Shown in pieces: positions 1 to 40,816 of a DNA stretch of 40,816 nt (the stretch's first letter is position 1; every line of letters begins with the position of its first letter). This stretch comes from a virus. Its lineage: Duplodnaviria > Heunggongvirae > Uroviricota > Caudoviricetes. The stretch is taken from positions 1-40,816 of the IMG/VR virus record IMGVR_UViG_2563366884_000001; one strand, 5' to 3'. A program made the translations under genes and the position numbers. The notes under the pieces are model-generated. The model searched no databases. It was not told the origin of the DNA and saw only the letters and a program-made list of their open reading frames with translations.

Positions 1-1284
1 CTACTTCTTCGCCTCTGCAACCACTTTGCTACCCACGCCGCGGTTATTGTATTCCCACATGCGGTTGTAGTTAGTGTCATTCAGATTGCGCTGTACTTCG
101 TCGTTATCATCAACGCTGCCGGTGTTACCCGCAAATGGACGATTAGAGATCACCGCATCAGCCCACGGTTTGGCTGTGTTAAAACCTTCGTTGATGGCGC
201 TATCACGGATCACTACCTGACCGTTGGTATTGGCATCAACATCCAGCGAGCGGCCCAGTTGCGCCACGCCATCACCGGAAGCATTGAAACGGCTGTTTAC
301 GGCGAGGAAACCGTAGTAAATGTTGGACAGCGTAGCCGGTGCAAACACATACGCTTCTTGCTGGGTACGGGAGTTCACCACGCGGAATTCGGTGTTATCG
401 AACACCACTGCGCCGCGACCAGAAACGATATCCACATCCCCTTCAATATAGCTGTTGGTCACCAGCGTACGCGGCTGACGATTCGTTTCCAGACGGTTCT
501 GCACACCGCTGTTGGTGACAAAGAAGGTGTTCTGACGACCGAGAATGTTGACGTTATTGATCTGCACTTTGTCGCCATCAGTACGCAGTGCCACCGCCGG
601 ATGGTTACCCGCATCTACGCTATCGCCCAGCGTGTTTTCGATGGTCAGGTTTTGCAGTTGCAGGCCATTGTTTTGTGACCAGAAGACCGCAGAGCAGAGA
701 ACACCGATACTGTCGCTGCGTTTACTCTGGCAGCTATCGTACATATACCACGCCGGTTTACCTGGCATATATTTGCCGCGCGGGTTGACGTCGTGACGCC
801 AGTCGGCAGGGCTCATGCCACCATCAAGGGAAAGCCCAATCTTCACATCAATCGGTTTTTCACCCGTACCGTACAGAGTAATTCCACCCGGAGCGGCAGG
901 GACATACACCGTTCCCTGATACTCACCAGGCATCACGGCAATATACTGGCGCTTGTTGGTACGCTTGATAATTGCCGCATCTACCGCCGCCTGAATCGTG
1001 GTATGCGTTACACCTTGAGTACCCGCCGGGCCGACAACAAAGTCAGGTTGCGCAGGCAGGGTAATCGGGGAAGGATTCCACGCTGCCGCACCTGGTGTCA
1101 GGGATGCAAAATAGTGTTGAGCATCGAAATTCTGCGCTTCTTTTGCCGACAGAATCGGGCGCGAAGAGGTACCAGGCGCGGTTTGATCAGAAGGACGTTG
1201 ATCGGGCGGTGTTGAGCTACAGGCGGTCAGCGTCACGCCAAAAGCCAATGCCAGCGCCAGACGGGAAACTGAAAATGTGTTCAC
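1..1284 (-). CDS. ybhC: YbhC, pectinesterase-family outer-membrane lipoprotein (host gene flanking lambda attB)
   Basis: Complete 427-aa ORF with lipoprotein signal (LTACSS); translation matches my memory of E. coli YbhC; position immediately next to the att core. Confidence 0.85.
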   Translation of the reverse strand: MNTFSVSRLALALAFGVTLTACSSTPPDQRPSDQTAPGTSSRPILSAKEAQNFDAQHYFASLTPGAAAWNPSPITLPAQPDFVVGPAGTQGVTHTTIQAAVDAAIIKRTNKRQYIAVMPGEYQGTVYVPAAPGGITLYGTGEKPIDVKIGLSLDGGMSPADWRHDVNPRGKYMPGKPAWYMYDSCQSKRSDSIGVLCSAVFWSQNNGLQLQNLTIENTLGDSVDAGNHPAVALRTDGDKVQINNVNILGRQNTFFVTNSGVQNRLETNRQPRTLVTNSYIEGDVDIVSGRGAVVFDNTEFRVVNSRTQQEAYVFAPATLSNIYYGFLAVNSRFNASGDGVAQLGRSLDVDANTNGQVVIRDSAINEGFNTAKPWADAVISNRPFAGNTGSVDDNDEVQRNLNDTNYNRMWEYNNRGVGSKVVAEAKK

Positions 1285-1418: not shown

Positions 1419-2489
1419 TTATTTGATTTCAATTTTGTCCCACTCCCTGCCTCTGTCATCACGATATTGTGATGCCATGGTGTCCGACTTATGCCCGAGA
1501 AGATGTTGAGCAAACTTATCGCTTATCTGCTTCTCATAGAGTCTTGCAGACAAACTGCGCAACTCGTGAAAGGTAGGCGGATCCCCTTCGAAGGAAAGAC
1601 CTGATGCTTTTCGTGCGCGCATAAAATACCTTGATACTGTGCCGGATGAAAGCGGTTCACGACGAGTAGATGCAATTATGGTTTCTCCACCAAGAATCTC
1701 TTTGCATTTATCAAGTGTTTCCTTCATTGATATCCCGAGAGTATCAACATGCAATGTTGTAGGGATGGCAATTTTTACACCTGTTTTGCTTTGCTCGACA
1801 TAAAGATATCCATCTACGATATCAGACCACTTCATTTCGCATAAATCACCAACTCGCTGCCCGGTAACAACAGCCAGTTCCATTGCAAGTCTGAGCCAAC
1901 ATGGTGATGATTCTGCTGCTTGATAAATTTTCAGGTATTCGTCAGCCGTAAGTCTTGATCTCCTTACCTCTGATTTTGCTGCGCGAGTGGCAGCGACCGG
2001 GTTTGTTGTTATATGGCCTTCAGCTATTGCCTCTCGGAATGCATCACTCAGTGTTGATCTGATTAACTTGGCTGACGCCGCCTTGCCCTCGTCTATGTAT
2101 CCATTGAGCATTGCCGCAATTTCTTTTGTGGTGATGTCTTCAAGTGGAGCATCAGGCAGACCCCTCCTTATTGCTTTAATTTTGCTCATGTAATTTATGA
2201 GAGTCTTCTGCTTGATTCCTCTGCTGGCGAGGATTTTTTCGTAGCGATCAAGCCATGAATGTAACGTAACAGAATTATCACTGTTGATTCTCGCTGTCAG
2301 AGGCTTGTGTTTGTGTCCTGAAAATAACTCAATGTTGGCCTGTATTGCTTCAGTGATTGCTATCCTCCTGTCTCGGCCTAATCCAAACTCTTTACCCGTC
2401 CTTGGGTCCCTGTAGCAGTAATATCCATTGTTTCTTATATAAAGGTTAGGGGGTAAATCCCGGCGCTCATGACTTCGCCTTCTTCCCAT
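1419..2489 (-). CDS. int: Integrase, lambda Int-type tyrosine recombinase (356 aa)
   Basis: Translation begins MGRRRSHERRDLPPNLYIRNNGYYCYRDPRTGKEFGLGRD, the lambda Int N-terminus; same length as lambda Int; adjacent to attL. Confidence 0.95.
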   Translation of the reverse strand: MGRRRSHERRDLPPNLYIRNNGYYCYRDPRTGKEFGLGRDRRIAITEAIQANIELFSGHKHKPLTARINSDNSVTLHSWLDRYEKILASRGIKQKTLINYMSKIKAIRRGLPDAPLEDITTKEIAAMLNGYIDEGKAASAKLIRSTLSDAFREAIAEGHITTNPVAATRAAKSEVRRSRLTADEYLKIYQAAESSPCWLRLAMELAVVTGQRVGDLCEMKWSDIVDGYLYVEQSKTGVKIAIPTTLHVDTLGISMKETLDKCKEILGGETIIASTRREPLSSGTVSRYFMRARKASGLSFEGDPPTFHELRSLSARLYEKQISDKFAQHLLGHKSDTMASQYRDDRGREWDKIEIK

Positions 2490-5724: not shown

Positions 5725-6002
5725 GATTTACTCTCAACGAACTGGTCAATAGCCATGCTAAGTGACACACCTAAAGTCTCGATATGCTGCTGAATATCCT
5801 GTAGCGTCTGCGCCTGAGATAACAGGATTTCACGGTTGCATAACTCTTTAACCAGATGCTCAAACTTGCTGTAATAACCGATACGACTTAGTGTTTCTTT
5901 CCCTGCATTCTCGCCTTCTTTGATAATTCCTCTTTCGCTAAGAATCAGATCGTGTTTGGTTCCGGTGATAACGTATTTGCCGAGGTCGATGTTTAGCTTC
6001 AT
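5721..6002 (-). CDS. Hypothetical protein (93 aa)
   Basis: ORF in the leftward early operon; no family recognised. Confidence 0.45.
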
Positions 6003-6018
6003 TGTTAATTATTCCATG

Positions 6019-6333
6019 TTAATTTATTCGTATGCCTGCTCTTTCTTCATCGAGTTTTTTTAGCTTGTATCGCATAGCCCTTACTGAATAAATTGAGCGG
6101 CAGGTTGCAATTGCTATTTCTTCTGCGGAGAACTTACCGAAAAGTGATACTTCTGCTCTTGTCCAGCGTCTTCCACGAAGTCGGCTAACAATGTCAGCGC
6201 CAATCCTTGTTGCTTTCGCCATAACTGCTTTTTCAGTCCTTTCCAGTTTTTCAGCAATAACTTCAACTGGCATTGTCGCCGATACTTCGCGCAAGAAATC
6301 GACTTCCCATTTCTCCCATGGAGTCTTTTTCAT
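6019..6333 (-). CDS. Hypothetical protein (104 aa), basic, possibly nucleic-acid binding
   Basis: ORF in the leftward early operon; Arg/Lys-rich. Confidence 0.45.
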   Translation of the reverse strand: MKKTPWEKWEVDFLREVSATMPVEVIAEKLERTEKAVMAKATRIGADIVSRLRGRRWTRAEVSLFGKFSAEEIAIATCRSIYSVRAMRYKLKKLDEERAGIRIN

Positions 6334-6344
6334 AGGCGATACCG

Positions 6345-6827
6345 TTATTTGATAAGAAGTGAAGGTTTCCCAACCTTGAGTTGAGCACCGGGAATATTTA
6401 TTCCTGCTTTTAGTTGGTGCTTGATTGCCAGTTTGTCGGCTTTAATTGTCGTTTCAAACTCAACGTATTCAGGAGGAAGGGCGCTTGAGTCGATTATTTC
6501 TACAATTTCTGACGGTTTGCGGATTGTTACCTGGTGAATACCTGCTCGAATATTTTTCTTGCCAACCATTTCAAGCGATGACGCTATATATGATTTGATG
6601 CTGTCAATCTTATTTTGAATTACTGCGGCTCGCTCATTCAGTGACTTTGCCTCTTCCTTGAGGCGTTCGGCATAACCAGATTCATTTTTAATGACGGAAA
6701 GAAGTTGTTCTATTTTATCGGTAAATTCTCCTTCCATGCCTTCTATTGTGTCAGCAATCATCTCTGGTTCTAAATCTGAATCCATCAATTTTGCGTATTC
6801 ATTGGCAATTTCATATAGTTTGCTCAC
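6345..6827 (-). CDS. Siphovirus Gp157-like protein (recombination-module associated)
   Basis: Translation resembles the Gp157 family; lies directly downstream of recT; start taken at GTG 6827 with GGAGG SD rather than TTG 6833. Confidence 0.55.
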   Translation of the reverse strand: MSKLYEIANEYAKLMDSDLEPEMIADTIEGMEGEFTDKIEQLLSVIKNESGYAERLKEEAKSLNERAAVIQNKIDSIKSYIASSLEMVGKKNIRAGIHQVTIRKPSEIVEIIDSSALPPEYVEFETTIKADKLAIKHQLKAGINIPGAQLKVGKPSLLIK

Positions 6828-7722
6828 TGGCAACCTCCAGTTTCGCTTTGCATTCTATGTAAATGGCTTGTACGTTCTGCTGCAATTTCATTCCAGATGT
6901 CAGGCGATATGCTTCTGCAAAATATCTCTTCAAATCATCCATGTTTTCAGCCTGAGCCATTTCATCACAAAGAAGTTGTGCTTTTTCCGTTATTTCCTGC
7001 TGGCGTTTCCGTTCATCTTCGCGGATATCTTCCTCTGATTTATGCGGCATAACTGGTTCAGTCCACACACCTTCTTCTTCGTTTAGTACGTGAATAGCAC
7101 TATCAAGACGTGATGCCTTAGGCCAATACTTGCTTGCACGCTTTACGACCGTCTTTCGCGCCATCTCATTCCAGTGATTTACCCATGGTCCTTTATCGCT
7201 GAATGCTGCCTTGCTTGTTTTCCTTACAGCCTCAATTTCAGCCAGACTCATCTCTTCCGTTAGATAATCACCTGCTGGCGTCTTAACTGTGCAGTAAACG
7301 CCAACGATATCACCACGATCACCGAAGGCGTTGTATTTATGGGTTGGTGCTTTATCAAGCCCGTTTGACTCATAGGTATCGTTAGCATGAACAAGTTTTG
7401 CCTGACCCCATGAGATAACACCAGACTCCATTGCAATATGGAGCAATCCCATATAGCTGATATCAAGGCAAACCATGCCATCGCGCGGAACCAGATAAGC
7501 CAGTTTGCTTGCAGGGTTTAAGGTGATGCCGATCGCCGCAACATTGATGATGGCGTTCTGTGCGCTGGTTGGATTTGCCAGTGCTGTTTTAGCCAGGTAA
7601 TCATTTTTCTGGAAATACTGAATTGCAAACTGGCTTTCCTTAGCCCATGTCACCGTCTGTTCAGTCAATGCTCCGCAGAATAACTGCTCCTGCTGTTTAA
7701 CGAATTCAACGATATTGCTCAT
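6811..7722 (-). CDS. recT: RecT-family single-strand annealing recombinase (303 aa)
   Basis: RecT-like motifs including KTVVKRASKYWPK; GGAGAAG SD; position in the early-left recombination module. Confidence 0.8.
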   Translation of the reverse strand: MSNIVEFVKQQEQLFCGALTEQTVTWAKESQFAIQYFQKNDYLAKTALANPTSAQNAIINVAAIGITLNPASKLAYLVPRDGMVCLDISYMGLLHIAMESGVISWGQAKLVHANDTYESNGLDKAPTHKYNAFGDRGDIVGVYCTVKTPAGDYLTEEMSLAEIEAVRKTSKAAFSDKGPWVNHWNEMARKTVVKRASKYWPKASRLDSAIHVLNEEEGVWTEPVMPHKSEEDIREDERKRQQEITEKAQLLCDEMAQAENMDDLKRYFAEAYRLTSGMKLQQNVQAIYIECKAKLEVASEQTI

Positions 7723-8030
7723 GCTGCTTCTCCATAAATGTGTCTGCGTTTGAATATTGCGAAGGCATATTCAGCCTTAACTCTTTCGGTTATTGCATCC
7801 CAGAACCATTCAGCGGCTTTTTCCTGATAGTTACAATCATCATCTTCCAGCCAGTCGATAGCGTCCTTAGTGTGTTCATCTGGTTTATATGAGCGAAGCA
7901 TTTCGCTTATTGGGTCGCAACGTTTGCAGAGGCGAACAACTTCACTGTTGATTCGCTCGTAATCTTCATCAGTAAAACTTGCGATTATTTGCGATATTTC
8001 ACGCTTATCATTCAGAGTCAGAATCATCAT
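7719..8030 (-). CDS. Hypothetical protein (103 aa) upstream of recT
   Basis: ORF with AGGAGA SD; stop overlaps recT start (ATGA). Confidence 0.45.
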   Translation of the reverse strand: MMILTLNDKREISQIIASFTDEDYERINSEVVRLCKRCDPISEMLRSYKPDEHTKDAIDWLEDDDCNYQEKAAEWFWDAITERVKAEYAFAIFKRRHIYGEAA

Positions 8031-8111
8031 CTTTCTCCTGTTCTTTGTGCTGATTGAGCATTTTGTTCATCTGACGAATGAATTCTTCGTCTGACCAGTT
8101 ATCTGTAAAAC

Positions 8112-8264
8112 TCATTTCCTGCGATACCACGGAAGGTTGATAGCTGATTTCATCGCTTTATTTGCTTCAAGCCACATTTTTGAATCACCAATAAATCTGG
8201 CTATTACTGCTTTGTTCTGTGCAGCACGAAGCATCTGGTGATTAATGGCTATTTCATTGCGCAT
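8112..8264 (-). CDS. kil: Putative Kil-like small protein (50 aa)
   Basis: Lies immediately downstream of cIII as in lambda; segment IARFIGDSKMW resembles my recollection of lambda Kil; below the ORF-track size cut-off. Confidence 0.35.
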   Translation of the reverse strand: MRNEIAINHQMLRAAQNKAVIARFIGDSKMWLEANKAMKSAINLPWYRRK

Positions 8265-8374
8265 AATAAGACCTCAACTCTTTTCCATCCGTCACGTAAT
8301 TTACTGGTGATTCGTTCAAGTAAAGATTCGGAAGGGCAGCCAGCAACAGGCCACCCTGCAATGGCATATTGCAT
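8249..8374 (-). CDS. cIII: CIII-like protein (FtsH inhibitor / CII stabiliser), 41 aa with divergent C-terminus
   Basis: MQYAIAGWPVAGCPSESLLERITSKLRDGWKR matches lambda CIII residues 1-32; AAGGAG SD upstream of this Met inside the longer annotated ORF. Confidence 0.8.
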   Translation of the reverse strand: MQYAIAGWPVAGCPSESLLERITSKLRDGWKRVEVLLCAMK

Positions 8375-8433
8375 GGTGTGCTCCTTATTTATACATAACG
8401 AAAAACGCCTCGAGTGAAGCGTTATTGGTATGC

Positions 8434-8461
8434 ATATAAAAAGGCCCTCACACTGGAGGGC
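8434..8461 (-). terminator. Putative rho-independent terminator (tL-like) between the 207-aa gene and cIII
   Basis: Hairpin GCCCTC-N6-GAGGGC followed on the minus strand by CTTTTTAT. Confidence 0.45.
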
Positions 8462-8577
8462 AAAGAAGATTTCCAATAATCAGAACAAGTCGGCTCCTGT
8501 TTAGTTACGAGCGACATTGCTCCGTGTATTCACTCGTTGGAATGAATACACAGTGCAGTGTTTATTCTGTTGTTAGT

Positions 8578-8605
8578 GCCAAAAATAAAGGCCGACTATG
8601 CGGCC
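8578..8605 (-). terminator. Putative rho-independent terminator overlapping the stop of the 207-aa gene
   Basis: Hairpin GGCCG-N6-CGGCC followed on the minus strand by TTTATTTTT. Confidence 0.5.
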
Positions 8606-9219
8606 TCGGAAGGAAGTCCAATCATCTTATTCAAATCTTCTACCCGTAAAGCAGGAAGTGCTGTACTTGCTTTATCTGCTTCTTTTGGTAGCAATTCTTT
8701 GCTTTCAGGCCAAACTTCAATAAGTCGCTTAACTGTTGTGACTGAGTTCAAAGCAGCCCATACATTTGATTCGATATCCTTTTTCTTGGCTTCAAGTTTT
8801 TGTTGCAATGCGCAGATTTCATCAAACCTTTTTGTTATTTCGTGTTCTGCGCTAAACATGCATTTATCTTTGGTCGGAGTAGGGAGCAATATATCTTCGC
8901 CGTTGCCGTCTTTCCCATATGAATGCCATCCAACCCTTCTGCCAGATACAGTCAGATAAATTGAAGTAGAACTAACATCGTATGAGTAAAATGAACATCC
9001 CATCTTTTCAAGTTCTTCACTTATAGCTACCAACTTGGATGATAACTGATCCACTTCCTCAGTTTTCTTTTTACCGCCAAACGCAATAACTCTGGCGTCA
9101 AGTGCAAGCTGGTTCTTTAACTTTGTTACTTCTTCAAGTTCAGTGAAAACCCCAGACTTAATTAAAGCGTTACGAGCGATTTCCTCTTTCATTCTCGTAG
9201 TTAAGCGGATTGATGACAT
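8596..9219 (-). CDS. Hypothetical protein (207 aa) between N and cIII
   Basis: GAGG SD before Met at 9219; no family recognised; occupies the lambda ral/sieB/ssb locus position. Confidence 0.5.
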   Translation of the reverse strand: MSSIRLTTRMKEEIARNALIKSGVFTELEEVTKLKNQLALDARVIAFGGKKKTEEVDQLSSKLVAISEELEKMGCSFYSYDVSSTSIYLTVSGRRVGWHSYGKDGNGEDILLPTPTKDKCMFSAEHEITKRFDEICALQQKLEAKKKDIESNVWAALNSVTTVKRLIEVWPESKELLPKEADKASTALPALRVEDLNKMIGLPSEAA

Positions 9220-9230
9220 ATTAATTCCTC

Positions 9231-9530
9231 TCAAATAAGTGGTTTGCTGCCTAATTTTATTTTCTGGCGACCAACACAAGTCACACCCATTTCACTGCGT
9301 GGCTTGCGGTAGTAAATACGGTTCTGTTTATGCTCGACTTCTTCTGCTTTCTTACAGCGAAGGCTTCCGAGTGATGCTGCTTTATCTGCTCTGACGCAAC
9401 CAGAGAGCTTTAGCGCAATTTTTCGCGCCAGTCGCTGCTCTTGCATTGCCTGTTCACGTTGAGCCTGTCTGCGTGCTCTGCGGCGATTTCTGGCGTTATC
9501 GTCAGCCAGATATGTAATGACTACTGTCAT
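9231..9530 (-). CDS. N: N-like transcription antiterminator (99 aa)
   Basis: Arg-rich N-terminus (DNARNRRRARRQAQREQ); C-terminus GVTCVGRQKIKLGSKPLI resembles lambda N C-terminus GITCSGRQKIKGKSIPLI; GGAGGT SD; first gene downstream of PL/nutL. Confidence 0.8.
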   Translation of the reverse strand: MTVVITYLADDNARNRRRARRQAQREQAMQEQRLARKIALKLSGCVRADKAASLGSLRCKKAEEVEHKQNRIYYRKPRSEMGVTCVGRQKIKLGSKPLI

Positions 9531-9637
9531 GTTGACCTCCGATGATTGACTTTGGCGGTGACGCGCCGGGTGCTTATCTTCCAGTTGCCGTCGTGCAGCT
9601 GCACTTCACGTCACCCCAAAGCCAACTACTCTTTGGT

Positions 9638-9678
9638 TCCCGCATTTCGGCGGGACAATCCCATCAATGTTAAAGAGC
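9638..9678 (-). promoter_or_regulatory. nutL: nutL: boxA GCTCTTTAACA (9678..9668) and boxB hairpin TCCCGC-CGAAAT-GCGGGA (9655..9638)
   Basis: boxA close to the CGCTCTTTA consensus; an identical boxA/boxB pair occurs after cro (nutR). Confidence 0.7.
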
Positions 9679-9699
9679 CTGCCAATCTGTTCCGTTTGG

Positions 9700-9800
9700 C
9701 TACCAGCGTCCTGCTGATGGCTTAAATTTAAGATCTCTTTAATTAATGGTCAAGAGTATTTTTGAAGAAAACTTAAATTTTCTTTCGTAACTTAAGTTTG
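9700..9800 (-). promoter_or_regulatory. PL promoter with OL operators (P22-type half-sites)
   Basis: Minus strand -35 TTGACC (9753..9748), 17-nt spacer, -10 TAAATT (9730..9725); overlapping ATTTAAG/CTTAAAT operator-like half-sites. Confidence 0.6.
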
Positions 9801-9815
9801 GCTTTGATTTTTAAA

Positions 9816-9845
9816 GGAAATAAAAAAAAGGGGCGAATGCCCCCC
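9816..9845 (-). terminator. Rho-independent terminator directly after the repressor gene
   Basis: Minus strand GGGGGGCATTCGCCCC followed by a 9-T run, abutting the c2 stop codon. Confidence 0.6.
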
Positions 9846-10496
9846 TTATGGAAGGTTTGCTAGTTTTGCATCGACAACTACGCCGATGATTTTGCAGTTT
9901 CCGTTGATCTCGATCATCGGATATTGTGGGTTAAGTGGTTTTAGAAACTTCCTGCCTGCATCAATAACTAACTTCTTGAAAGTTGCCTCGTTTTCTCCTT
10001 CGAGCTTTGCAACTACCAGTTTCCCGTTACGCGGCTCTACTTCAGGATCGACGAGTATTATCATTCCTTCAGGGATACTGAGACCGGCCGGAGCCGTCAT
10101 TGAGTCTCCCTTCACGTCCAACCAAAACGAATCTTCTGAACAGTCTACGGTTGTATCGTACCAGTTATCTATTGCACGCTTATGATATGGTTCTACAGCT
10201 TCCATCCAGCATCCTGCGCTCACCCAGCTAATCAGAGGGTATGACCCTCTTGGATCATGCCTACTGTGATAGGCAATGTTTGAAAGACTTTCCTCTCCTT
10301 TCATCAGATAGTCAGGGGAACACTTCAACGCATTAGCCAGGGCGAGAAGATTCTCTCCATTTGGCTCTGTCTCAGAGCGTTCCCACTGAGATATGGCAAC
10401 ATTAGACACGCCGACCATCTTTCCAAGTGCGGCCTGCCTGATCTTGAGTTCTTTTCTCCGAGCGCGAATGCGCTCTCCCATCAATTGAGTTTTCAT
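9846..10496 (-). CDS. c2: Prophage repressor, P22 C2-type (216 aa, LexA-like autopeptidase fold)
   Basis: MKTQLMGERIRARRKELKIRQAALGKMVGVSNVAISQWERSETEPNGENL... and C-terminus ...NGNCKIIGVVVDAKLANLP match P22 C2 along the full length as I recall it. Confidence 0.9.
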   Translation of the reverse strand: MKTQLMGERIRARRKELKIRQAALGKMVGVSNVAISQWERSETEPNGENLLALANALKCSPDYLMKGEESLSNIAYHSRHDPRGSYPLISWVSAGCWMEAVEPYHKRAIDNWYDTTVDCSEDSFWLDVKGDSMTAPAGLSIPEGMIILVDPEVEPRNGKLVVAKLEGENEATFKKLVIDAGRKFLKPLNPQYPMIEINGNCKIIGVVVDAKLANLP

Positions 10497-31992: not shown

Positions 31993-33830
31993 TGAAAGTA
32001 ACTGCAAACGGTAAGACATTTACCTTCCCTGATGGTACGAGCACGGAAGATATTGGCACCGCCATTGATGAGTATTTTGCTGGTCAGGCTGTTCAGCAAC
32101 AAACAGTTAATCAGGCCAATAATGCACCAACACGGGAAGAACCATCATTGATGCAACAAGCTGGCGATTGGCTCACTGGTGGTCAAAGTGCAGGGCAAAT
32201 TGCAGAACAGGCTGGTCGTGGTCTGGTAAACATACCATTTGACGTATTACAGGGCGGCGCAAGTCTGATTAATGCAATCAGTCAGGGGCTTGGTGGCCCC
32301 AAGGTTTTGGATGATGTTTATCGTCCAGTAGACAGACCGACAGACCCCTACGCTCAAGCTGGAGAAACAATTGGCGGGTATTTAGTTCCAGGAGTTGGAA
32401 CGGCAGGAAGCATGGCTATTGGATCACTGGCAGAGGCCGCAAATCAGAAAGGTGATTTCGCACAAAATGCAGCTAAAAATGCCGGAGTTAACCTTGCCGC
32501 TCAGGGTGTTCTTTCCGCAGCAGCAAAGGGAATAGGGCGTGGAATAACGGCTATAAAAGGTGATATTGCGCCAGAAGTGGCAAAGAAAATTGCCACATCA
32601 GAATCGATGGGCGTGACACCAATGACATCTGATGTTATCCCGCCGAAAAATGCTTTCACTCGCGGACTTACTCAAGATGCTGAGGGGGCTTTGCTCGGGA
32701 CAGGCTCAAAGCGAGCGGAGCAATATGCAACGCGTAGTAAGCTGGTAAGCAATTATTTTGACCGTTTTGGTGAGTACAACCCTGATGATGTGGTGAGATC
32801 TCTGACCACCACGTTAAGGGGACGGAAGGATGCCGCTGGCGCTGTTATCAATGACGTCACCAATAAAATGGGTAATGCCGCAGTTGATACCACAAATACC
32901 ATGAATGCTCTGAATACAGCGATCGCAAGACAGGAACGGCTTGGGACTTCTGCCAATCAAAACCTGCTTACATCCTTGCGTAACCTACGTGAAGAATTAG
33001 CAAACCCTGCAACTGATTTGGATGTTACGTTTGATCTCTTGCGCCAGCACAGAACAGCATTTAGATCTAATGTTCAGGGAGATGCCATGGTCTTCCCCAA
33101 CCAGGCAAAAGCAGCTACCAATATGGTAGAGAATGCAATGTCAAAAGACCTTCGTAACGCAGTTGCCAAAAACCTCGGTGCTTCAGACGCAGCAAAATAC
33201 CTTAAAGCAAATTCCGATTATGCAAACGTTTATAATAAGGTGCTTAATAAAAACATTGCTAACAAGCTCAACAAGGCAAGCAGTGAAGCCAGTCCTGAAC
33301 TTATAAATACCGTTGTATTAAGCAGAAAACCATCTGACGTGAAACGAATCTGGAGCGCACTTGATGATAAAGGGAAAGATGCTATGCGTGCAGCTTACGT
33401 CAGCAAAATAGCGGAAAAGGCCGGTGACTCTCCAGCCAAGTTCATCACTGAAGTTAATAAGCTGAAATCTCAGTCAGGCGGTGAAATTTACAACACTATT
33501 TTTTCTGGAAAGCACATGAAAGAACTTGATGCTCTTCATGAAGTTCTACAGCAAGCAGCAAGATCAGACACCGCAAATGTAGTAACTCAGACGGGGCAAT
33601 CGCAAGCCAACAGGATAAGGACGATTGGCGCAACTACGACTCTTGGCGTATCAATGGGGCTTGAGGCTGGTTTCGGTGCAATGATGCGCTTGTATGAATC
33701 CAAAGCAGCAAGGAATGCGCTCTTACGTCTGGCAAACACTAAAGCTGGAACGCCAGCTTATGAAAGAGCGCTAAATCAGGCGGCTACTGCCGTGCGCCCG
33801 CTCTTAGTTAACGAAGCTACCCGGCAGTAG
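31989..33830 (+). CDS. Ejection (DNA-transfer) protein, P22 gp16 analogue (613 aa)
   Basis: Size and position equivalent to P22 gene 16; last gene of the co-directional virion block before the accessory island. Confidence 0.6.
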
Positions 33831-33852
33831 CACTGTAAGCCAAGGACGGCAT

Positions 33853-34335
33853 TTATTTTATAGTTTTTATGAATTCTTTATTAAATCCCTTCGCTTCTCC
33901 GGGGTATCTTCCGAAGACAATTTTTATAAAAACAGAAAAAATAAAGATAGCAACGCTTAACAACAATTGCAGTATCATTGGAACCCAAAGAACTACAGGC
34001 TCTATATTCATGAAACCAAATATTCTTCCGGCGATCATGGCGAAGTACCACACTGTTATCAGCAAACTTAGTGGCATATGAATTACTGATATTACCAATC
34101 CAAGAGCATCAGTAATTCTGTTTTCAAATTTTTCAGGGGAAAACTTTTCTTTAAGGTAATTCAGTGCGCAGGCCTCATTCTCTGGATTTTCAGCATTTTT
34201 CCCTATAGCAATAGAAATCTCAGATATCCTTGATTCAATTCTTTTACGTTTAATAAAACTAGAAAAAAAGAACCACGCAATCTGCAACCCTATCCCCAGA
34301 AATAGAGTTGCGGCAACTAGCACAGCGTAACTCAT
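33853..34335 (-). CDS. Multi-pass membrane protein (160 aa), low-GC moron at the sieA-equivalent locus
   Basis: TAAGGAGGT SD before Met at 34335; three or four hydrophobic helices; markedly AT-rich codon usage compared with flanking phage genes. Confidence 0.6.
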
Positions 34336-34377
34336 AGAATCAGACACACCAACCTCCTTAGTTTTGCGCAGGATACC

Positions 34378-34743
34378 ATGAAAAAAGTTAACATTGGAAA
34401 CGTACCAAAGATGCTCGTTCCGCTCTTTGAGAGCGGTACAATTGTGTTTTGTAGAGACTTTCCAGAATGGCAACGCCTGCATCAAAAACTTGGCGTTGAC
34501 GTGCATGACTCGGACGCCAACGGAGCGTCTCATACAATGAGTAGCGAGAATGGTGTTTTGCATGTGATAGGCGTGTTCAATGGCAAACTATCTACTATTG
34601 CCCATGAGTGCGCTCACATGGCATTCGATATCTGCTCAAGGGTAGGTGTTGATGTTGAACCAGGAAGAGCCAACGAGACTTACTGCTACTTAATGAGCAG
34701 GCTTGTTGAGTTCTGCGAGCGACATATCAAAAAGCCGGAGTGA
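34378..34743 (+). CDS. Small HExxH-motif protein (121 aa), putative minimal zinc metallopeptidase
   Basis: [11 protein letters not shown] contains an HExxH motif; divergent from the membrane-protein gene (42 bp apart); stop codon sits inside a hairpin. Confidence 0.5.
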
Positions 34744-34749
34744 CCCGGC
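34733..34749. terminator. Putative bidirectional terminator hairpin between convergent genes
   Basis: GCCGG-AGTGAC-CCGGC flanked by AAAAA upstream and T-rich sequence downstream; contains the stop codon of the HExxH gene. Confidence 0.4.
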
Positions 34750-34756
34750 TTGATTA

Positions 34757-34936
34757 TTACTTTTTGCTGTCTGGAGTTCGCTTATCCAATACCCAGCCAT
34801 GACCTGGCTTTGTTGTTGGTGGAAGCCTTTCGTTGTCCTTGACGGTTGCAAAATTGTCTTTCTTACCGCCGCGTGGGCCAACTTCTTGGTATATTCCGCC
34901 GTTTTTTCCTGTGTTTTCACCTGGTTTTTTCGCCAT
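34757..34936 (-). CDS. YjzC-like small protein (59 aa)
   Basis: KPGENTGKNGGIYQEVGPRGG…LPPTTKPGHGW fits the YjzC-like pattern (KPGE…G.Y.E.G…P.T…W); GAGGT SD; own sigma70-like promoter (TTGACT…AATATT) at ~34950..35010. Confidence 0.5.
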   Translation of the reverse strand: MAKKPGENTGKNGGIYQEVGPRGGKKDNFATVKDNERLPPTTKPGHGWVLDKRTPDSKK

Positions 34937-35026
34937 GATATACCTCAACATACACCCGTTATTGGGCGATTAAATATTGATCTCATTTTATAAGTAGTCA
35001 ATATGGCCCAGGTAAATGCAAAAATT

Positions 35027-35050
35027 AACCCACCTTCAGGTGGGTTTTTT
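35027..35050 (+). terminator. Terminator hairpin overlapping the 3' end of mnt
   Basis: AACCCACC-TTCA-GGTGGGTT perfect stem followed by TTTTTT on the plus strand; the mnt stop codon lies in the loop. Confidence 0.55.
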
Positions 35051-35287
35051 GTACAAATCCTTCAGCGTATCAAACACCATCTTCTTAACAAGCTCTGACT
35101 GCTCATCAGCGATGCGTTCCGCATCGTCTCGATAGCCTGAAATTTTGGATGGCTTTGATACAGCATCAGTCACTATCTGAACTAATTCTGAATTAAGAGA
35201 GCGGCCATTGGATTTGGCTCGCTGTTTTAGTTTTTCCTTTAATTCGTAAGGTAGCCGCAGATTAAATTGCGGGTCATCTCTTCCCAT
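35036..35287 (-). CDS. mnt: Mnt repressor, P22-type ribbon-helix-helix protein (83 aa)
   Basis: MGRDDPQFNLRLPYELKEKLKQRAKSNGRSLNSELVQIVTDAVSKPS…GYRDDAERIADEQSELVKKMVFDTLKDLYKK matches P22 Mnt as I recall it. Confidence 0.85.
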   Translation of the reverse strand: MGRDDPQFNLRLPYELKEKLKQRAKSNGRSLNSELVQIVTDAVSKPSKISGYRDDAERIADEQSELVKKMVFDTLKDLYKKPT

Positions 35288-35350
35288 TCTTGATGCCTCG
35301 CTTTTGTGAGTGGATCGGCATCTTATTATCTGCTGGTTGCATCCTCAATA

Positions 35351-35365
35351 AGACCACAGTGGTCT
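35351..35365. promoter_or_regulatory. Mnt operator-like perfect palindrome AGACCACAGTGGTCT
   Basis: 15-bp perfect inverted repeat in the mnt–tailspike intergenic region, similar to the P22 Omnt core (GTCCAC.GTGGAC). Confidence 0.55.
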
Positions 35366-35433
35366 CTTTGTTTGATTAATAATGCATCACTGTGGCAATG
35401 CTGCGGCGATTCCTTGTATCTGGAGCAAATTAA

Positions 35434-38379
35434 ATGACAGACATTACAGCCAATGTTGTAGTGAGTATGCCTTCGCAACTCTTCACTATGGCGCGTTCTT
35501 TTAAAGCCGTAGCCAATGGCAAAATTTATATCGGTAAAATTGACACTGACCCGGTAAATCCTGAAAACCAGATTCAGGTTTATGTAGAGAACGAAGACGG
35601 TTCTCACATTCCTGTTTCGCAACCAATAATCATTAACGCTGCTGGATATCCGGTATATAACGGACAGATTGCCAAATTCGTTACCGTGCAAGGCCATTCT
35701 ATGGCTGTTTATGATGCGTATGGTGCGCAGCAGTTCTATTTTCCTAATGTGCTGAAGTATGATCCTGATCAGTTACGGCAGCAATTAGAAGACCCAGATG
35801 GAGCGAATAAATACCCAAAACTTCAGATAGCAAGATGGAGAGACAGTTATGATGTAAGAGGTTGGGGGGCTATTGGTGATGGTGTTCATGATGACACATC
35901 AGCTCTATCAGAATTACTTTCTGTTGCAACAGGTGGTGAAAAGATAGATGGGCGAGGGCTTACTTTTAAAGTATCAACTCTTCCAGATGTCAGTCGATTT
36001 AAAAATGCTCGTTTTTTATTTGAGAGAATACCGGGTCAGCCTCTTTTTTATGCTTCTGAAGATTTTATCCAGGGAGAGTTATTTAAAATTACAGATACAC
36101 CGTGGTACAACGCCTGGACGCAGGATAAAACGTTTGTATATGACAATGTCATCTATGCGCCTTTTATGGCTGGAGACCGCCATGGTGTAAATAACCTCCA
36201 TGTTGCATGGGTTCGCTCAGGAGATGACGGGAAGACCTGGACAACGCCGGAATGGCTTACAGATTTACATGAAAACTATCCCACAGTTAACTATCACTGC
36301 ATGAGTATGGGGGTTGTCAGAAATCGCCTTTTTGCTGTAATTGAGACGCGGACCGTGAGCGGAAATAAACTGCAGGTTGCAGAGTTGTGGGATCGCCCAA
36401 TGAGTCGCAGCCTTCGCGTTTATGGTGGTATAACGAAAGCAGCAAATCAGCAAGTCGCTTATATTCGCATTACTGATCACGGATTATTTGCTGGTGATTT
36501 TGTCAACTTCTCAAACTCTGGTGTTACAGGTGTTACCGGGAATATGACGGTGACTACTGTTATTGATAAAAATACTTTTACAGTTACGACGCAAAATACC
36601 CAGGATGTGGATCAGAATAACGAGGGTAGATACTGGAGTTTTGGTACATCATTTCACTCGTCACCATGGAGAAAAACCAGTCTTGGAACTATTCCTTCTT
36701 TTGTTGACGGAAGCACTCCTGTTACTGAGATTCACAGTTTTGCGACGATTAGCGATAACAGTTTTGCTGTTGGCTACCATAATGGTGATATTGATCCACG
36801 CGAGCTTGGGATACTCTATTTCTCTGATGCTTTCGGTTCTCCTGGTAGCTTTGTTCGCAGACGCATACCTGCAGAATATGAGGCGAATGCATCTGAGCCA
36901 TGTGTAAAATATTATGATGGCATTCTGTATCTGACGACCAGGGGGACATTAAGTACTCAACCCGGTAGTTCATTGCACAGAAGCTCTGATTTAGGTACAT
37001 CATGGAATTCTCTTCGCTTCCCAAATAATGTTCATCACTCAAACCTTCCTTTTGCCAAAGTTGGCGATGAGCTGATTATTTTTGGCAGTGAGCGCGCATT
37101 TGGTGAGTGGGAAGGAGGAGAACCTGATAACCGTTATGCAGGAAATTATCCAAGAACATTTATGACCAGAGTTAACGTCAATGAGTGGAGTCTGGATAAT
37201 GTAGAGTGGGTTAATGTTACTGATCAGATTTATCAGGGCGGAATAGTTAACTCTGCGGTTGGTGTTGGTTCAGTTTGTATCAAAGACAACTGGCTGTACT
37301 ACATTTTCGGTGGGGAAGACTTTCTAAACCCATGGAGCATAGGGGATAACAACAGAAAATATCCTTATGTTCACGATGGTCACCCGGCTGATTTGTATTG
37401 TTTCAGGGTGAAAATTAAACAGGAAGAATTTGTTTCAAGGGATTTTGTCTACGGAGCCACTCCTAACAGAACGCTTCCTACTTTTATGTCGACGTCAGGC
37501 GTGAGGACGGTTCCTGTACCCGTTGATTTCACAGATGATGTTGCCGTCCAGTCACTGACTGTCCATGCAGGTACATCAGGACAAGTTCGCGCGGAAGTCA
37601 AACTTGAGGGTAATTACGCCATTATTGCGAAGAAAGTACCGTCTGATGATGTTACCGCTCAGAGATTAATCGTTAGCGGAGGTGAAACAACGTCTTCAGC
37701 AGATGGTGCAATGATAACGTTGCATGGTTCCGGAAGCAGTACTCCACGTCGCGCGGTATATAACGCACTCGAACATCTTTTTGAGAACGGAGATGTTAAA
37801 CCTTATCTTGATAATGTAAATGCTCTTGGTGGTCCGGGAAACAGGTTCTCGACAGTTTATCTTGGCTCCAATCCTGTGATTACCAGTGACGGAACATTAA
37901 AGACAGAGCCGGTCTCTCCTGACGAAGCATTGCTGGATGCCTGGGGTGACGTCAGGTATATCGCTTATAAATGGCTGAACGCTGTCGCTATAAAGGGGGA
38001 AGAAGGGGCGAGGATACATCATGGTGTAATCGCGCAGCAACTTCGTGATGTTCTTATTTCTCACGGACTCATGGAAGAAGAAAGCACAACATGCCGCTAT
38101 GCCTTTCTTTGCTATGACGATTATCCCGCAGTATATGATGACGTCATTACTGGCCAAAGGGAAATGCCGCTGACTGATAATGACGGGAGCATCATTGTTG
38201 ATGAGGATGATAATCCAGTGATGGTAATGGAAGACATCATTGAGCGCGTTGAAATAACGCCAGCAGGATCTAGATGGGGGGTCAGACCTGATCTCTTATT
38301 CTATATCGAGGCGGCATGGCAGCGCAGAGAAATAGAAAGAATAAAAGCTAGGTTAGACTTAATAGAAGGGAAGCACTAA
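35434..38379 (+). CDS. Tailspike: P22-type N-terminal head-binding domain fused to Asp-box sialidase-like beta-propeller and C-terminal intramolecular-chaperone-like domain (981 aa); putative K1 endosialidase
   Basis: N-terminus [47 protein letters not shown]… matches the P22 tailspike head-binding domain; Asp boxes SGDDGKTW and SSDLGTSW; long C-terminal extension. Confidence 0.75.
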
Positions 38380-38520
38380 ATGTTTCGTTGGCGTCAAAAA
38401 TATGAACTGCTCACATAAAGAAGTAAGTACATTGGCAAAAAATATTGACGTCAACGAAATTAAATATAAAACATCATGCAGACATATTACCAATATTAAT
38501 ATAAGGTAATAAAAATATAA

Positions 38521-38560
38521 TTTACAAAAAAGCCCGTTGGAAGCGACGGGCATTAACCGC
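38521..38560 (-). terminator. Putative terminator hairpin in the AT-rich right-end region
   Basis: Minus strand GCCCGT-N8-ACGGGC followed by TTTTTT. Confidence 0.35.
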
Positions 38561-38803
38561 GGTAATGGATAAATTATTAATATTTTTAGATTGTGAACGA
38601 TATCATATTGTGCGGAAGTAGTGAAGTAACCATGTAAAATGATTGTTTCATAGCCTATGAGACACACAAGGCTTTGTGCTCTTCGATAGTTGTTAAGGCG
38701 GATCACTCTACCTTCTCATCAAGCCAATCCGCCCACCACTGCATCATTTCTCTGCGCTTATCGAGATACTGAGCATGGTTGTAAATTCAACTAACCAAGT
38801 CCG

Positions 38804-38844
38804 TTGACAAAAAATTAGCGCAAGAGGACAAAAAATCACCTTGC
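38804..38844 (-). promoter_or_regulatory. sib: sib / tI-like retroregulator hairpin (lambda-type) on the P-arm side of att
   Basis: GACAAAAAATTAGCGCAAGAGGACAAAAAATCACCTTGCGCTAATGCTCTG closely matches the lambda sib/tI region as I recall it; hairpin GCGCAAG…CTTGCGC with a T run on the minus strand. Confidence 0.6.
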
Positions 38845-38995
38845 GCTAATGCTCTGCCTCAGGTCACTAATACTATCTAAGTAGTTGATTCATAGTGACT
38901 GGATATGTTGTGTTTTGTAGTATTATGCAGTCTATTATTTAGACTAAATCTTTCATAACATATTGATATTTACAGTGTTTTCTGTTTCTCGTTCA

Positions 38996-39010
38996 GCTTT
39001 TTTATACTAA
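38996..39010. repeat. attR: attR core GCTTTTTTATACTAA, preceded by a lambda-like P arm (~38850..38995)
   Basis: Second exact copy of the 15-bp core; the upstream P arm contains Int arm-type sites (AGGTCACTAA, CATAGTGACTGG). Confidence 0.9.
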
Positions 39011-39100
39011 CTTGAGCGAAACGGGAAGGTAAAAAGACAAAAAGTTGTTTTTAATACCTTTAAGTGATACCAGATGGCATTGCGCCATCTGGCAGAGTGA

Positions 39101-39577
39101 TTAACTAAACATCGCAGTAATCGAGGCACTCGCCAGAGAGTGAAAATGAACGTTAAACCCGACCATCGCGCCGCTGGCACCTTCATCGACATCAATACGT
39201 TCTACATCCAGCGCGTGAACGGTAAAAATGTAGCGATGGGTTTCGCCTTTCGGCGGCGCTGCGCCATCGTACCCGGTTTTACCAAAGTCGGTACGCGTCT
39301 GCAAAACGCCGTCTGGCATAGCTACCAGACCAGAGCCAAACCCTTGCGGTAATACGCGGGTATCAGCGGGTAAATTAACAACTACCCAGTGCCACCAGCC
39401 GGAGCCGGTTGGCGCATCCGGGTCATAGCAGGTGACAACAAAACTTTTCGTTCCCGCAGGAACATCATCCCACGCCAGATGCGGTGAAATATTATCGCCA
39501 TCGTAACCCATGCCGTTAAAGACATGACGATGCGGCAGCTTATCGCCATCGCGCAGATCGTTACTGATGAGTTTCAT
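39101..39577 (-). CDS. ybhB: YbhB, PEBP-family protein (host gene flanking lambda attB)
   Basis: 158-aa ORF matching E. coli YbhB as I recall it; position on the far side of the att core from ybhC. Confidence 0.85.
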   Translation of the reverse strand: MKLISNDLRDGDKLPHRHVFNGMGYDGDNISPHLAWDDVPAGTKSFVVTCYDPDAPTGSGWWHWVVVNLPADTRVLPQGFGSGLVAMPDGVLQTRTDFGKTGYDGAAPPKGETHRYIFTVHALDVERIDVDEGASGAMVGFNVHFHSLASASITAMFS

Positions 39578-39685
39578 TAGAATGCCTCCGGGAAACCTCG
39601 GCCTTCAGACCGGGGAGGAAAGGAGGCGGTTTTCCGACTAACTGTACTTTGCATAATCACATTTTCCTCTTTAGTATGTGAACAC

Positions 39686-40816
39686 ATGAAACGCGCATAT
39701 AAATACCGGTTTTACCCGACAACTGAGCAGGCTGAGCTTTTAGCTCAGACGTTTGGCTGTGTGCGCTTCGTCTACAATTCCATCCTTCGTTGGCGTACCG
39801 ATGCGTACTACGAGCGAAAAGAAAAGATCGGTTATCTACAGGCCAACGCTCGCCTTACGGCGCTCAAAAAAGAGCCTGAATACATATGGCTGAATGATGT
39901 TTCCTGCGTTCCCCTCCAGCAGTCGTTGCGCCACCAACAAGCCGCCTTTGCTAACTTCTTTGCCGGACGAGCTGCATATCCGGCTTTCAAAAGCAAACGG
40001 CACAAACAGGTGGCTGAGTTCACTGCCAGCGCGTTTAAACACCGTGACGGCGAGTTGTATATAGCAAAGAGCAAGTCGCCGCTGGATGTTCGCTGGAGTC
40101 GAGAATTACCATCTGCGCCGTCAACCGTTACCATTTCCAGAGATAGCGCTGGCAGGTACTTTGTTTCCTGCCTGTGTGAGTTTGAACCTGTATCAATGCC
40201 TGTTACCGCTAAAACGGTCGGCATTGATGTGGGCTTAAAAGATTTATTCGTCACCGATACCGGATTCAAAACCGACAATCCCCGCCACACCGCTAAATAT
40301 GCGAAGCGATTAACGCTGCTACAGCGACGTTTAAGCAGGAAGCAAAAAGGCTCAAGAAACCGAATTAAAGCCCGCTTAAAGGTCGCCCGACTCCACGCGA
40401 AAATCGCCGATTGCCGGATGGACAATCTGCACAAGTTGTCCCGCAAACTGATTAACGAAAACCAAGTTGTTTGCGTCGAATCCCTCAAGGTGAAAAACAT
40501 GATCCGCAACCCGAAGCTGTCTAAAGCAATAGCTGACGCAGGCTGGAGCGAACTTGTTCGCCAGCTCCAGTACAAAGGCAAATGGGCCGGGCGGTCAGTG
40601 GTCGCCATTGACCAGTATTTACCGTCCTCAAAATGCTGTAGTTGCTGCGGTTTCACCATGCAAAAAATGCCTCTTAATGTTCGTAAATGGCACTGCCCTG
40701 AATGCGGCGCAGACCATGATCGCGACATTAACGCGGCACGTAATATTAAAGCTGCCGGGCTGGCAGTGTTAGCCCACGGAGAGCCTGTAAACCCTGAATC
40801 GCAGCACGCGGCTTAG
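39686..40816 (+). CDS. tnpB: TnpB (IS200/IS605 OrfB-family RNA-guided nuclease-like protein), 376 aa, no tnpA partner in window
   Basis: Typical OrfB N-terminus (MKRAYKYRFYPT…), RuvC-like acidic residues and C-terminal zinc finger (CxxC…CxxC); stop codon is the last three bases of the window. Confidence 0.8.
   Translation: MKRAYKYRFYPTTEQAELLAQTFGCVRFVYNSILRWRTDAYYERKEKIGYLQANARLTALKKEPEYIWLNDVSCVPLQQSLRHQQAAFANFFAGRAAYPAFKSKRHKQVAEFTASAFKHRDGELYIAKSKSPLDVRWSRELPSAPSTVTISRDSAGRYFVSCLCEFEPVSMPVTAKTVGIDVGLKDLFVTDTGFKTDNPRHTAKYAKRLTLLQRRLSRKQKGSRNRIKARLKVARLHAKIADCRMDNLHKLSRKLINENQVVCVESLKVKNMIRNPKLSKAIADAGWSELVRQLQYKGKWAGRSVVAIDQYLPSSKCCSCCGFTMQKMPLNVRKWHCPECGADHDRDINAARNIKAAGLAVLAHGEPVNPESQHAA

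Follow-up and report, generated by a model that had tools for sequence, protein, structure and literature searches.

Identity and domain order of the tailspike

The question raised by the long open reading frame (ORF) near the right end of the 40,816-nucleotide stretch of DNA analyzed here (the window) is what kind of tailspike it encodes and what this tells about the bacterium that carries it. The original prediction described a chimera of a P22-type head-binding domain, a sialidase-like propeller and a self-cleaving C-terminal domain, directed against the K1 capsule. We find that the product of the gene, an orthologue of CUS-3 SiaK1, is almost certainly the tailspike by which a P22-like (Lederbergvirus-type) temperate phage, specific for E. 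coli K1, destroys its receptor. The positions of all features are given in Table 1.

The ORF is uninterrupted, without frameshift or truncation, and has a calculated precursor mass of 109.3 kDa for its 981-residue product, in agreement with the value of 109 kDa that a review gives for its CUS-3 counterpart (PMC5380687). DNA identity is 99.1% with siaK1 of Enterobacteria phage CUS-3 (CP000711.1) and reaches 99.5% with a tail fibre gene, that of phage vB_EcoP-720R6. Alignment with CUS-3 SiaK1 (ABQ88383.1) showed 971 of 981 residues to be identical; none of the 10 substitutions, for example D454 (G in CUS-3) and G767 (R in CUS-3), is at a mapped functional residue. The two proteins (the CUS-3 enzyme is also recorded as CAJ29292.1; Stummeyer et al. 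2006, King et al. 2007) have length, domain order and module junction in common, and both genes reside in a P22-like prophage, in the case of CUS-3 in K1 E. coli. The CUS-3 GenBank record annotates siaK1 as 'endosialidase tailspike protein', an endo-alpha-sialidase with direct-assay evidence (PMID 16689790). Judged by its sequence, the window gene is the endosialidase tailspike gene already characterised from CUS-3, a prophage of E. coli K1. The chimera of P22 head-binding domain and endosialidase is likewise already known, having been published in 2006-2007 together with its evolutionary meaning.

Pfam resolved six domains in canonical order, each above its curated cut-off. The head-binding domain, originally placed over the first ~110 residues, is confirmed at aa 1-113 (PF09008), with 76% identity to residues 1-113 of P22 gp9 (E 1e-63). 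Among PDB structures (1lkt, 2vky, 7sg7), aa 1-118 match the head-binding regions of P22 (1lkt at E 9e-45) and of 'Gene 14 protein' (7sg7). Residues 145-817 match the K1F endoNF structures 1v0e and 3gvl at E=0, and the 'Endosialidase' chain of 4hiz was matched at E 6.5e-273. Together with the 63% identity to K1F across aa 114-980 and the conserved catalytic triad, these matches bear out the identity of the protein as a phage endosialidase (endo-N-acetylneuraminidase, GH58-type tailspike). Matches of this strength lie far beyond chance, and each domain is covered by solved structures at 63-76% identity. The proposed self-cleaving chaperone-like domain is also found, as a Peptidase_S74 domain with a conserved Ser/Lys dyad: aa 698-979 match the endoNF chaperone-domain structure 3gw6 (E 1e-94), and the C-terminal domain is 56.5% identical to the K1F CTD. 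Two further parts of the body, a beta-barrel inserted in the propeller and a stalk domain, were not included in the earlier description.

Table 1. Positions of features in the window (nucleotides; aa, residues of the tailspike precursor).
Feature	Position	Strand	Remarks
Pectinesterase-domain ORF at ybhC position	1-1284	-	Left flank
attL core GCTTTTTTATACTAA	1331..1345	+	Exact 15-bp repeat
Lambda-type integrase	1419-2489	-	356 aa, full length, Arm-DNA-bind_1 domain
gp4-family protein ORF	26739-27221		Matches NZ_CP116948.1 annotation
gp10 ORF	27230-28648		Matches NZ_CP116948.1 annotation
Tail needle (gp26) ORF	28648-29496		Matches NZ_CP116948.1 annotation
Endosialidase tailspike gene, siaK1 orthologue, complete	35434..38379	+	ATG-to-stop ORF, 981 aa
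P22-type head-binding (tail-machine attachment) domain, aa 1-113	35434..35772	+	Head_binding PF09008, full length, E 1.2e-66
Linker and endosialidase N-terminal extension, aa 114-212	35773..36069	+	End_N_terminal PF12218 at aa 146-212; K1F-type similarity from aa 114
Catalytic six-bladed beta-propeller, aa 213-662	36070..37419	+	End_beta_propel PF12217, full length 1-367/367, E 3e-233
Asp box 1, SGDDGKTW, aa 262-269	36217-36240	+	
Beta-barrel inserted in propeller, aa 324-406	36403..36651	+	End_beta_barrel PF12195, full length, E 1.2e-46; aligns with endoNF 1v0e/3gvl
Catalytic E488	36895-36897	+	endoNF E581, conserved
Catalytic R503	36940-36942	+	endoNF R596, conserved
Asp box 2, SSDLGTSW, aa 517-524	36982-37005	+	
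Catalytic R554	37093-37095	+	endoNF R647, conserved
Stalk (triple beta-helix/prism), aa 663-817	37420..37884	+	End_tail_spike PF12219, full length, E 9e-78
C-terminal intramolecular chaperone domain, aa 818-981, ~18.7 kDa	37885..38376	+	Peptidase_S74 PF13884, aa 818-878, E 1.6e-10
Cleavage nucleophile S818 (predicted role)	37885-37887	+	endoNF S911, conserved
General base K823 (predicted role)	37900-37902	+	endoNF K916, conserved
Empty neuO site, 11-bp TAAATATAAAA, single copy	38461..38471	+	blastn vs CUS-3
CUS-3/IntS-type integrase gene remnant, 3' end, 84 bp	38703..38786	-	99.7% identity to CUS-3 up to L001 10206
attR core GCTTTTTTATACTAA	38996..39010	+	Exact 15-bp repeat; then ybhB
ybhB	39101-39577	-	

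The transition between the attachment and receptor-binding modules is sharp. When the remaining residues were compared on their own, no significant similarity to P22 gp9 was detected beyond residue 113, and DNA similarity to P22 and IME10 ends at window position 35771/35774. An apparent tblastn similarity to P22 extending to aa 237 was rejected, since the residues past 113 alone give no significant P22 match. By blastp, aa 114-980 aligned to K1F residues 214-1064 with 62.7% identity. The crossover thus appears from these alignments to lie directly after YDPDQ (aa 109-113), at aa 113/114, without gap or overlap, and the earlier description as 'clean domain shuffling' is fair. A candidate alternative junction at nt 208 in phiv205-1 proved to be an IS insertion and not another chimera.

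Modularity of the endosialidase module is general across phages: K1 phages of the T7-like, SP6-like and myovirus types carry homologous modules at ~55-63% protein identity. It has been described with CUS-3, HK620, Sf6, P22 and K1F as examples in a review (PMC5380687), which also summarises the same domain-shuffling argument from Stummeyer et al. 2006. K1F endoNF (gp17; 1v0e, 3gvl, 3gw6) has propeller, barrel, stalk and chaperone domains in common with the window protein, but carries a T7 gp17-like attachment module (aa 1 to ~213) in place of the P22 head-binding type. Conversely, P22 gp9 and Sf6 gp14 share the head-binding domain, whereas the receptor-destroying bodies are unrelated, the right-handed beta-helix endorhamnosidase of P22 contrasting with the sialidase propeller here. 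The tailspike of vB_EcoP_ZX5 (QTH80017.1), an epsilon15-like phage of another genus (Uetakevirus), is 99.5% identical in DNA over window 35955-38347 (aa 174-971), such that the catalytic and chaperone modules are essentially alike. However, its N-terminal ~190 residues differ, with a crossover at aa ~134-174 as compared to 113/114 in the window protein.

Functional residues and predicted maturation

To map functional residues, the window protein was aligned with CUS-3, K1F gp17 (1064 aa, AM084414) and K1E gp47, as the original prediction had proposed for the catalytic residues and the cleavage serine; all were found conserved. The active-site triad of endoNF consists of E581/R596/R647 (PMC2955717), and its equivalents E488, R503 and R554 are conserved across K1F, K1E and CUS-3. 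H250, corresponding to endoNF H350, is conserved as well. The two Asp boxes noted earlier in the propeller align with those of K1F endoNF (362, 610) and of K1E. The triad, both Asp boxes and the Ser/Lys dyad are shared with K1F endoNF, to whose propeller that of the window protein is 70% identical. The protein is probably an active endosialidase that cleaves alpha-2,8 polysialic acid; indirect evidence for this comes from the direct-assay annotation of the 99%-identical CUS-3 protein and from the occurrence of the gene together with neuS. Differences from endoNF include D819 for N912 and M760 for Q853.

In endoNF, the bond cut is the one directly before S911, and K916 serves as the general base of a Ser/Lys dyad (PMC3828593, PMC8326128). 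The motif at the corresponding position reads NPVIT|SDGTLK in the window protein and NPIVT|SNGERK in K1F. The K1F record lists residues 2-910 as the mature peptide, the released C-terminal domain beginning at 911, and the endoNF structure alignment stops at T910, equivalent to T817. T817 is therefore the predicted C-terminus of the mature protein, and the predicted products are a subunit of ~90.6 kDa and a chaperone domain of 18.7 kDa.

If maturation follows that of its homologues in K1F and P22, the C-terminal chaperone domain would nucleate trimerisation of the 109-kDa precursor. K823 would then activate S818 for attack on the T817-S818 peptide bond, and release of the 18.7-kDa domain would leave a mature trimer of ~91-kDa subunits. 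The N-terminal head-binding domain would dock this trimer onto the prophage-encoded gp4/gp10/gp26 tail machine.

The prophage carrying the gene

Two exact copies of a 15-bp repeat identical to the lambda att core, which occurs at these two places only in the window (0.02 expected by chance), delimit a prophage of ~37.7 kb between the ybhC position and ybhB. Beyond ybhB follow a TnpB/InsQ gene and bioA, and the order ybhB-TnpB-bioA is annotated in NZ_CP116948.1. A site 'between pgl and bioA' has been reported previously as the second one at which CUS-3-like prophages insert (PMC9659370). The window prophage is thus not CUS-3 proper, which is integrated at argW with an IntS/KplE1-type integrase and carries neuO.

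The virion-module ORFs upstream of the tailspike (P22-type terminase, portal, scaffold, coat, gp4, gp10, needle and ejection proteins) are intact. The tailspike is thus encoded together with its cognate P22-type tail machine (gp4, gp10, gp26) in the same prophage. Upstream of the window tailspike lie a SieA-like exclusion gene, two small ORFs with no assigned function and a Mnt/Arc-type repressor gene; ant and arc, known from P22/CUS-3, are missing there. The immediate surroundings differ from those in CUS-3. In CUS-3, ant lies before siaK1, and neuO and the IntS-type integrase at argW come after it. In the window, the mnt-like repressor gene comes directly before the tailspike gene, and downstream there are an empty neuO site, the remnant of an integrase gene and, at ybhB, a lambda-type attR.

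Identity to CUS-3 begins 47 bp upstream of the tailspike start codon. By blastn, window 35387-38471 corresponds to positions 5954-9038 of the CUS-3 sequence (L001) and window 38461-38786 to L001 9881-10206. The 11-bp sequence TAAATATAAAA, present here in single copy, flanks the 842-bp cassette of the O-acetyltransferase gene neuO in CUS-3; alignment with CUS-3 shows the cassette to be precisely absent. Consistently, a tandem-repeat finder and a pattern search detected no AAGACTC heptad repeat of neuO downstream of the tailspike. The uninterrupted neuO-less junction is shared by ~16 complete genomes.

CUS-3 int occupies L001 10123-11280 (minus strand), and the match to the window ends inside it; the remaining 3' end is annotated as an incomplete pseudogene in NZ_CP116948.1. 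Past 38786, a lambda attP arm replaces the CUS-3-like sequence. The remnant, as far as the alignment indicates, marks the joining point of the lambda-type att/int module. No RNA family was matched by Rfam over 33000-40816. A promoter scan returned consensus-level matches only, in a number not above shuffled expectation, and one convincing terminator hairpin was found (minus strand, 38551-38532), other terminator matches being at consensus level only.

Host capsule, alternative readings and meaning

The window itself is without a capsule locus, and the association with the capsule was therefore taken across 5426 complete E. coli genomes. We used the catalytic core of the tailspike (window 36070-37869) as one query and, as K1 marker, neuS (the alpha-2,8-polysialyltransferase gene of the kps locus of UTI89) as another. 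The tailspike core was present in 186 genomes and neuS in 329, while a chimeric query of the tailspike core and neuS matched 330. It follows that 185 of the 186 tailspike-bearing genomes are also neuS-positive (Fisher p ~1e-250). The sole exception is strain 998 (NZ_CM132938.1), which has the tailspike, no neuS match and one place with the chimeric query. The genome closest to the window, FDAARGOS_1251 (99.9% identity over 87% of the query, the match ending at the record end), was matched at one place by the tailspike query and at two by the chimeric one, and is therefore neuS-positive. Thus, the K1 host anticipated in the original prediction is strongly supported by association and very likely, the capsule type of the bacterium carrying the window prophage being judged from near-identical prophages elsewhere.

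An intact gene may nevertheless sit in a defective or cryptic prophage, in which case the tailspike would be a genomic fossil never assembled onto infectious particles. CUS-3-like prophages are described as liable to decay, their structural genes often being pseudogenes (PMC9659370); IS elements interrupt related copies in phiv205-1, FY26 and NCTC11151, and the integrase remnant at 38703-38786 bears witness to past rearrangement. However, all virion-module ORFs are at their full annotated length and the tailspike ORF is unbroken, both att cores are exact, the 356-aa lambda-type integrase is full length, and no disruption was seen. We consider decay of this prophage unlikely, and it may still be inducible. 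A different view of the element is that of a still-active recombinant lineage not specifically described before. Such a lineage would combine a CUS-3-type virion module and endosialidase with a lambda-type int/att module spliced into the former integrase gene within its 3' end, precise absence of the neuO cassette, and an immunity region I reduced to sieA and mnt. This is a possibility that we put forward tentatively, with the odds somewhat against it.

As to the enzyme, a substrate preference shifted relative to the CUS-3 and K1F endosialidases, towards O-acetylated polysialic acid or the K92 alpha-2,8/2,9 polymer, might be read from the ten substitutions relative to CUS-3 and from the lack of neuO in the window prophage. 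A further candidate is M760, found in the window protein and in CUS-3 alike at the position of endoNF Q853, a residue of a polysialic-acid-binding site in the stalk. Yet the CUS-3 enzyme, which has this exchange too, is a proven K1 endosialidase; no catalytic residue differs, propeller identity is 70% with K1F and ~99% with CUS-3, and the tailspike occurs almost exclusively in neuS-positive genomes. A shift in substrate is accordingly very improbable. Less probable still, to the point of being scarcely credible, is a protein that binds the capsule but is catalytically inactive, like the engineered endoNF mutants used as polysialic-acid lectins. Active-site mutants of endoNF do fold normally (PDB 3gvj/3gvk/3gvl), but nothing in this is specific to the window gene, in which E488, R503, R554 and H250 are conserved and neither frameshift nor truncation is found. 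An active K1 endosialidase tailspike of the CUS-3 type remains the preferred reading.

In conclusion, the joining of a P22 head-binding domain to an endosialidase is a textbook case of tailspike module exchange, known since 2006, and matters little as a discovery. The value of the finding lies in annotation: by this gene the element can be recognised as a temperate phage specific for the K1 capsule, with a K1 (polysialic acid) strain as its very likely host. Since neonatal meningitis and urosepsis are caused by K1 E. coli, the host assignment is clinically relevant. A CUS-3-like prophage without neuO, integrated at att-lambda, is also a small further example of the exchange of integration modules and cargo genes among such phages, the differences at the level of the prophage being minor variations within the known mosaicism of lambdoid and P22-like phages. 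If the prophage does represent a still-active recombinant lineage, K1-specific temperate phages would be able to lysogenise K1 strains without capsule O-acetylation, using other exclusion functions in its place.

The neuO site and tailspike copies in K1 genomes

Comparison with CUS-3 revealed that the neuO O-acetyltransferase cassette (842 bp; positions 9039-9880 of the CUS-3 sequence L001) is precisely missing downstream of the tailspike gene. In CUS-3 the cassette is flanked by the 11-bp sequence TAAATATAAAA, whereas the window prophage lacks the cassette and carries a single copy of TAAATATAAAA at 38461-38471, which, judged by sequence, resembles an empty insertion site. The same uninterrupted, neuO-less junction is common to ~16 complete E. 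coli genomes.

In many K1 genomes, including APEC O1, IHE3034 and ExPEC XM, the endosialidase core is present in 2-4 copies at separate chromosomal positions, indicating that several CUS-3-like prophages or remnants reside together in one strain. An IS element interrupts the tailspike gene in some of these genomes (FY26, NCTC11151 and phiv205-1). Among the 186 tailspike-bearing complete genomes, E. coli strain 998 (NZ_CM132938.1; tailspike at 3349634-3351433) was the only one without a megablast match to neuS, the K1 polysialyltransferase gene. Its prophage is of the same neuO-less type as that of the window, and the capsule may have been lost or replaced after lysogenisation.

Integration module and accessory genes

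The prophage is located at the ybhC/ybhB (gal-bio) site, in contrast to the published CUS-3 site, argW. Immediately after the remnant of a CUS-3/IntS-type integrase gene comes a lambda-type attP arm; recombination within the old int gene appears to have exchanged the integration module. Just beyond the prophage, between ybhB and bioA, lies a TnpB/InsQ ORF that continues up to the end of the window.

Features of the integration module, its flank and the region upstream of the tailspike
Feature	Position	Strand	Remarks
int, lambda-type integrase	1419-2489	-	356 aa
Classical lambda att cores	1331-1345 and 38996-39010		exact copies at both prophage ends
Integrase-gene remnant, CUS-3/IntS-type	38703-38786	-	3' end, 84 bp
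TnpB/InsQ RNA-guided-endonuclease-family ORF	39686-40816	+	OrfB_IS605 and Cas12f1-like TNB domains
SieA-like superinfection-exclusion gene	33853-34347	-	phrog_7745, E 7e-109
121-aa ORF	34378-34743	+	phrog_1365

The SieA-like gene has the last of the ejection-protein genes on one side and the tailspike gene on the other; its mechanical ORF reaches 34563, the homologous portion being the 164-aa version. The 121-aa ORF lies in the region equivalent to immI; the ant and arc genes that P22 and CUS-3 have there are both missing from the window. It had no Pfam match. Because it contains an HExxH-like motif (HECAH), its product may be a small metalloprotease-like protein.

Probable exchange of the endosialidase module

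An endosialidase and chaperone module 99.5% identical in DNA to that of the window is present in vB_EcoP_ZX5 (MW722083.1, 1803-4922), an epsilon15-like Uetakevirus. There the N-terminus of ~190 aa is unrelated to that of the window tailspike, and the crossover point differs from the P22-type junction (aa 113/114). This arrangement points to a very recent exchange of the module between phage genera.
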